Assembly (NCBI GenBank): GCA_024679065.1
Contig: JAGIQG010000017.1
Span: forward strand, 34,162,001-34,226,000
Length of the DNA: 64,000 nt
From: Sphyrna mokarran
Taxonomy: Eukaryota
Direction of reading: 5' to 3'
The translations under genes and the position numbers were made by a program. A model generated the notes under the pieces. That model did no database searches. It had not been told where the DNA came from and was given only the letters and a program-made list of their open reading frames with translations. Positions 54,582 through 54,852 of the stretch are shown here, one piece after another. Position 1 is the stretch's first letter. Each line of letters begins with the position of its first letter.

Positions 54582-54852
54582 ACAGTAAGAGGTCTGACTG
54601 TTACTGTTTAAGTCCAACCCATTTATTTGATAGTAAACTCACAAGCTTTAAGGTGTTTCAACCTCTTCGTCAGGTGAATGAGGTGTTCTGGTCTCAGATA
54701 GAACCAGAGCACCTCATTCACCTGACGAAGAGGTCGAAACACTTCGAAAGCTTGTGAGTTTACTATCAAATAAATCGGTTGGACTTAAATCTGGTGTTGT
54801 CAGACCTCTTACTGTGTTTACCATAGTTCAATGCCGGCATCTCTACGTCATG
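54582..54852 (+). mobile_element. Penelope-like element remnant: inverted pseudo-LTR pair plus 37-bp tail, 8-bp TSD
   Basis: Arms 54582-54692 and 54703-54815 are inverted repeats. Tail 54816-54852, AATAAA at 54769-54774. GAGATTTA at 54574-54581 and 54853-54860. The host CR1 is continuous after removal. Confidence 0.88.
54716..54759 (+). ncRNA. Minimal type I hammerhead ribozyme motif (Penelope-associated)
   Basis: AUUCAC-CUGACGA-A-GAGGU(CGAAAC)ACUUC-GAAA-GC-UU-GUGAGU. Stem I 6 bp, stem II 5 bp, CUGANGA and GAAA core boxes, palindromic AGCU in place of stem III. Confidence 0.78.

Follow-up and report, generated by a model that had tools for sequence, protein, structure and literature searches.

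Architecture of the locus

The window, by which we mean the whole stretch of 64,000 nucleotides analyzed here, carries a minimal hammerhead motif at 54716–54759. The motif forms part of the right arm of a head-to-head insertion of about 270 bp (54582–54850), and a repeat scan and a two-strand alignment revealed that the left arm is antisense to the right. This inverted repeat context around the hammerhead was overlooked in the first-pass annotation. The features of the locus, with the parts of the + strand hammerhead read directly from the sequence, are:

54572–54581, + strand: target-site duplication, left copy, TAGAGATTTA (sequence; 279-base offset, the same length that contigs from two other organisms skip)
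54582–54704, − strand: left arm, an inverted 5'-truncated pseudo-LTR with no tail
54637–54679, − strand: second hammerhead copy, broken (two-strand alignment)
54703–54850, + strand: right arm, a 5'-truncated pseudo-LTR of a Penelope-like element with a 3' tail
54716–54759, + strand: minimal type I hammerhead, core complete, H17 = U54753, predicted site 54753/54754 (sequence; descriptor against shuffles; family covariation)
54716–54721 with 54754–54759, + strand: stem I, AUUCAC with GUGAGU, 6 bp, one U-G
54722–54728, + strand: C3–A9 box, CUGACGA
54729, + strand: extra A after A9
54730–54734 with 54741–54745, + strand: stem II, GAGGU with ACUUC, 5 bp, one G-U
54735–54740, + strand: loop II, CGAAAC
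54746–54749, + strand: G12–A15.1 box, GAAA
54749–54752, + strand: palindromic AGCU
54753, + strand: position H17, a U
54817–54850, + strand: optional tail of about 34 bp, right arm only, 5' border approximate (two 3'-end classes among 97 arms; such tails appear in the available text of PMC8557442 and PMC11167929)
54851–54860, + strand: target-site duplication, right copy, TGGAGATTTA (9/10 identical to the left copy, 8 exact)

Every core position (C3 U4 G5 A6 N7 G8 A9, G12 A13 A14 A15.1 and U16.1 H17) is present in the 54716–54759 copy, as are the extra nucleotide after A9, the G10.1–C11.1 pair and the palindromic 15.2–16.2 positions. Each part listed in the first-pass annotation, namely the core boxes, stems, loop, extra A, AGCU and U54753, was found where that annotation had placed it. 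The annotation had also proposed searches by motif and by covariance model, and these diverged in outcome. The core boxes alone match twice in the window against 1.02 expected, with 26 of 100 shuffles reaching two, and so without the stems they are no rarer there than chance. A descriptor combining the core with both stems gave a single window match, the 54716–54759 copy, and no match in any of 300 dinucleotide shuffles. The covariance-model search, run against Rfam, returned no hammerhead family up to E 10, together with weak matches to miRNA hairpin models that all fell far below gathering scores. Rfam hammerhead models expect helix III. By itself the 44-mer is marginally structured (z −0.7), and its stem II departs from the family majority in that a C to T change at 54743 turned a G-C pair into G-U. 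Cleavage sites with U17 are slower; a literature search on rates at U17 yielded no ranking that could be applied here.

The insertion and its empty site

The duplication copies TAGAGATTTA and TGGAGATTTA lie 279 bases apart, and a contig from organism B and another from organism C pass directly from 54571 to 54851, with exactly 279 bases absent. Both empty-site contigs are about 7–10% diverged from the window. Contigs of organism A (two runs, one sample) enter the left arm for 17 bases and then end. The insertion flanks read as an older repeat, which we take to resemble a LINE fragment.

Within the insertion, 9 of the 149 aligned bases of the right arm depart from the subfamily majority (51 copies). 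The minus-strand hammerhead has lost G12 through a one-base deletion or change, and the base of its stem II is disrupted. Coding sequence is absent from both arms. The arms carry one common non-majority base, at 54806 and its mirror, which is what a single template RNA would give; they have also diverged, through unpaired changes and a rearranged stretch near 54597–54606. The short replaced stretch at 54597–54606 of the left arm reads as that arm's outer end in inverted orientation and looks like a local template switch.

These two mutually inverted arms (54582–54704 and 54703–54850) are the only arms of the family in the window. Tandem same-sense hammerhead units are absent, and we rejected a non-LTR retrozyme on this basis.

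Elsewhere in the window, no host gene was identified by Pfam on 30 of 118 frames or by homologue, PDB, splice-site and composition scans. A 219-base direct repeat (33256–33474 and 34307–34525, 93% identical, 1051 bases apart) lies beside a decayed RT-like frame, and a 119-codon frame at 39426–39782 (− strand) has a protein-like composition; it matched no Pfam family, and a search of longer proteins gave no homologue.

The parent Penelope-like family

A DNA search of the same genome returned 2053 candidates, of which 40 were scored. The exact 31-mer directly downstream of the ribozyme occurs 2248 times in the genome, against 0 for its reversed control, and a 35-mer from the window with one free position occurs 44 times. 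One locus of the same stem II subfamily as the window copy, L022, carries broken RT and endonuclease frames upstream of its pseudo-LTR; Pfam on these broken pieces alone gave no RT or GIY-YIG match. All 30 loci found with L022-derived coding DNA have a related pseudo-LTR, and in one of the related copies, L049, the frame upstream of it matches RVT_1 (E 1.5e-9) and GIY-YIG (E 3.6e-4). Taken as single frames, L049 and L047 score above the cut-off for RVT_1 and at 21–22 bits for GIY-YIG, just under the 22.6 cut-off. Near-intact coding frames of the element, up to several hundred residues long, occur in this genome. Searching the PDB with the protein encoded by the element gave no match.

Judged by these sequences, the window copy is evidently a member of a high-copy, endonuclease-bearing Penelope-like retroelement family. 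The placement of a minimal type I hammerhead within a Penelope pseudo-LTR, as first annotated, is accordingly borne out by the RT and GIY-YIG domains upstream in related copies. In translations of the parent family, RT and endonuclease are separated by a CxxxxCxxC linker, a feature that the available text of PMC8557442 names for the Neptune/Nematis type; the linker suggests that the parent family may be of this type rather than Poseidon.

At L049:1509–3920 (− strand), an 804-codon open frame has an unbroken RT-to-endonuclease region and, at its N-terminal end, an unrelated repeat frame.

Head-to-head copies across the genome

Inverted pairing is frequent in the family. An inverted partner lies within 1.5 kb in 21 of 30 rows of one sample, 12 of them covering the ribozyme, and in 20 of 30 rows (17 of 27 places) of another. 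The 3' ends of 97 arms in 54 loci fall into two main classes, at about +88 to +105 and +122 to +133 from C3. Among 80 loci, exactly one end is tailed in 47 of the 50 head-to-head pairs; the remaining three are short at both ends, and no pair is tailed at both. In the available text of PMC11167929, the anole element has two reverse-transcription start sites and both target strands are nicked, and our two end classes and one-tail pairs match those start sites and that double-strand nicking. A published alternative for such palindromes is self-priming on an antisense template (PMC3846280, in the part available). A preference for fold-back at the 5' edge of the ribozyme was not confirmed, the first samples being edge-selected and the alignments of a less biased sample being cut by stem II variation.

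The palindrome might instead spread as a unit in its own right, as a self-propagating non-autonomous element or a retrozyme, a notion encouraged by its own target-site duplication and empty site and by the number of palindromic copies. Against it, arm lengths and junctions vary between loci, with 5' starts ranging from −900 to +90 relative to C3, and the arms grade into copies with a coding frame. There is also no tandem same-sense array here, unlike in retrozymes as presented in the available text of 10.64898/2026.07.22.740005. The variable junctions largely refute the idea, and we regard it as almost certainly wrong.

Conservation and covariation of the ribozyme

We parsed 88 ribozyme copies in 59 loci and dropped seven rows misparsed through indels, including the left arm of the window, which left 81 rows and 64 distinct copies. 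G5, A6, A9, A13 and A14 are invariant in all 64; 53 copies retain G8 and 56 retain G12. The extra A after A9 occurs in 63 of 64, the G10.1–C11.1 pair in 49, and the palindromic 15.2–16.2 positions are G in 63 and C in 61. Both stems exchange one pair for another across the same 64 copies: A-U (30 copies) and G-C (27) at pair 2.2–1.2, and C-G (30) and G-C (19) at pair 10.3–11.3. Stem I has 274/384 Watson-Crick pairs against a shuffled mean of 231, and stem II has 153/192 against 114, values that none of 2000 shuffles reached for either stem; the copies are related by descent, so these covariation counts amount to a handful of independent compensatory changes. Conservation of the core and of stem pairing in the family, on which the first-pass annotation had staked its reading, was thus found, and both stems covary. 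Covariation across the subfamilies shows what appears to be selection on the hammerhead fold in the master elements, and the family is well suited as a natural resource for studying covariation in minimal hammerheads.

Several further observations concern variation among subfamilies. Stem II and its loop together span 10–17 bases across copies. In L034–L061 and L092–L121 they are hypervariable between subfamilies, with many loop sequences, and the pseudo-LTR on either side is nearly constant; position 17 in these same loci is U, C or A according to subfamily. In an N7 = G subfamily (L051, L053 and L059), the outer part of stem I is broken (3/6 pairs) in several near-intact, young-looking copies, which may mean that a master element spread while its ribozyme was weakened. 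Many subfamilies in L034–L061 have, about 19 bases upstream of C3, ...TGCAG followed by the conserved ACCAGAAC, which is splice-acceptor-like. In a Drosophila virilis element, an intron ends at helix I (PMC4209133, available text).

Fate of catalytic bases after insertion

A genome-wide pattern with free CpG positions matched 253 copies; the pattern fixes the other core bases, so the decay test is limited to G8 and G12. G8 is kept in 178 copies and changed to A in 75, while a neutral loop G is kept in 202 and changed to A in 51. The loss of G8 thus exceeds that of the loop G (Fisher p 0.018), and it is similar to C to T change at the same CpG, which turned C7 to T in 60 of 253 (p 0.16). G12 is changed to A in 35 of the 178 copies with intact G8, a rate equal to that of the loop (p 1.0). 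G8 and G12 are thus lost no more slowly than a neutral loop CpG, and these catalytic bases are not protected after insertion. The G8-to-A change is somewhat more frequent than strict equal-rate drift would have it, and this excess could come from CpG context, from a sub-lineage or from mild selection against active copies. Both G8 and G12 are kept in 143 of 253 copies, and an intact core is therefore a common, majority state.

Predicted folding at the locus

All energies given here are nearest-neighbour secondary-structure predictions, which leave tertiary contacts, proteins and editing outside. The stretch 54570–54830 is predicted to fold as one hairpin at −176.4 kcal/mol (z −25.5; 0 of 200 shuffles). 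Forcing the hammerhead fold carries a predicted cost of 61.1 kcal/mol in 54581–54851 and in larger contexts. The cost falls to between 2.6 and 7.6 kcal/mol without the left arm, the lower value being that of the bare 44-mer, and is 2.4 kcal/mol in a context where the left arm is cut back to its innermost portion (54680 onward). In a growing + strand transcript, 48 of the 51 bases of 54703–54753 are predicted to be paired with the left arm once the cleavage site emerges; on the minus strand, 43 of 44 hammerhead bases would be paired with the other arm. The hairpin argument covers read-through on either strand. Transcripts initiated between the two arms would not be subject to the antisense lock.

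The first-pass annotation had suggested that a + strand transcript of this copy could self-cleave. In its fullest form, this reading would have the copy cutting host transcripts or read-through RNA in vivo, either by dimerizing in trans or with the aid of a Penelope protein. It has real points in its favor: every core base and both stems are present, the family motif covaries, the lizard Penelope hammerhead cleaves upon addition of its protein (PMC11167929, available text), and near-intact coding frames exist in this genome. The predictions run the other way, with an antisense copy directly upstream, a penalty of 61 kcal/mol and co-transcriptional zipping. Even with the left arm excluded, the predicted probability of the hammerhead fold in 54700–54780 is 5e-4. 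This fragment, put forward in the first-pass annotation, omits the antisense arm and is thus uninformative about the locus itself. The active dimer is predicted at −16.7 kcal/mol against −34.1 kcal/mol for the best cofold, placing active forms 10–17 kcal/mol above the best, and the 64-kb window holds no same-sense partner copy with which to dimerize. The intactness of the core, being commonplace (143/253), does not single this copy out. Published single motifs are, in the available texts, inactive (PMC4209133) or protein-dependent (PMC11167929). We therefore consider self-cleavage here very unlikely. Should the copy cut host pre-mRNA after all, it would show a Penelope ribozyme at work on a host gene; the evidence runs against this.

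The hairpin might rather be the relevant unit itself, furnishing, if transcribed, about 120 bp of dsRNA for A-to-I editing or for small RNAs against Penelope. The hairpin is predicted to be very stable on both strands, inverted partners are common (20/30 and 21/30 rows), and the weak miRNA hairpin model matches, all far below gathering scores, point the same way. The arms have nevertheless diverged, by unpaired changes and by the rearrangement near 54597–54606, and the insertion is absent in organisms B and C, so that a conserved role is not seen. The literature on Penelope hairpins and siRNA yielded reviews only. We hold this role to be quite improbable.

A probably hairpin-locked stump

We conclude that 54716–54759 is a real minimal hammerhead in a dead-end, head-to-head Penelope stump, and that it is very probably inert here through a predicted antisense hairpin. 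Predicted pairing with the antisense twin would tie both up in one long hairpin, which makes cleavage unlikely, and the copy is an ordinary case of a known kind. In the sequence of events that we envision, a single integration event would have copied the element RNA two times, once from the tailed and once from the untailed start point, and the resulting short cDNAs would have been joined head to head. The ribozyme would have been under selection while in active elements and would have drifted since insertion. Upon + strand read-through, the antisense arm would be made first and would zip up the ribozyme as it emerges; read-through of the − strand would give the broken copy only, likewise zipped. 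Counting against the inert reading, the + copy retains every core base and the − copy does not.

The locus itself matters little, as one among thousands of decaying copies. Its lesson is that intact-looking hammerheads need folding with their flanks, because an inverted arm shifts the prediction by about 60 kcal/mol. The one-tail rule is a testable constraint on the mechanism of Penelope integration. A wider conjecture, which we think rather unlikely as a whole, is that such stumps record twin priming, in which the two nicked target strands prime reverse transcription from different positions along the RNA. The antisense lock would be a by-product that lets thousands of hammerheads sit unharmed in transcribed DNA as dsRNA sources, with locked copies favored in genes over unlocked sense ones.

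Comparison with known systems

Searches of the literature on hammerheads, Penelope and sharks returned no paper devoted to this lineage's families, supplements aside. A 2026 preprint includes one cartilaginous fish and, in its available text, reports cleavage in one of nine tested elements and depletion from introns (10.64898/2026.07.22.740005).

One of the closest counterparts is the min-HHR of metazoan Penelope-like elements, of which the available text of PMC4209133 reports that a single motif is inactive and that dimers have low activity. Our copy shares with it the core boxes, the extra nucleotide between 9 and 10.1, the G10.1–C11.1 pair, the palindromic 15.2–16.2 positions and the lack of helix III, as well as the pseudo-LTR location, the strong variation of stem II between families and the prevalence of single truncated copies. 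The window subfamily is set apart by its stem lengths (stem I 6 bp, stem II 5 bp) and by U17 (C or A in sister subfamilies). The same text also has opposite-strand pairs, 100–700 bp apart, whereas the window copies are fused directly into one hairpin.

As an insertion, the locus resembles the units of endonuclease-bearing Penelope elements described in the available parts of PMC3846280 and PMC8557442, with a head-to-head inverted 5'-truncated pLTR, a 30–40-bp tail at one end and a short target-site duplication (8–10 bp there). It differs from those published units as an extreme short form in which both arms are without coding sequence. The PAc Poseidon element of the green anole offers a further parallel, with two start sites defining the tail, a hammerhead just upstream and an AT-rich target (PMC11167929, available text). 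Its hammerhead is reported there to cleave only with protein, and RNA-seq ends at the site are absent. Unlike PAc Poseidon as described in that text, the parent family here has the CxxxxCxxC linker and is known from sequence alone.
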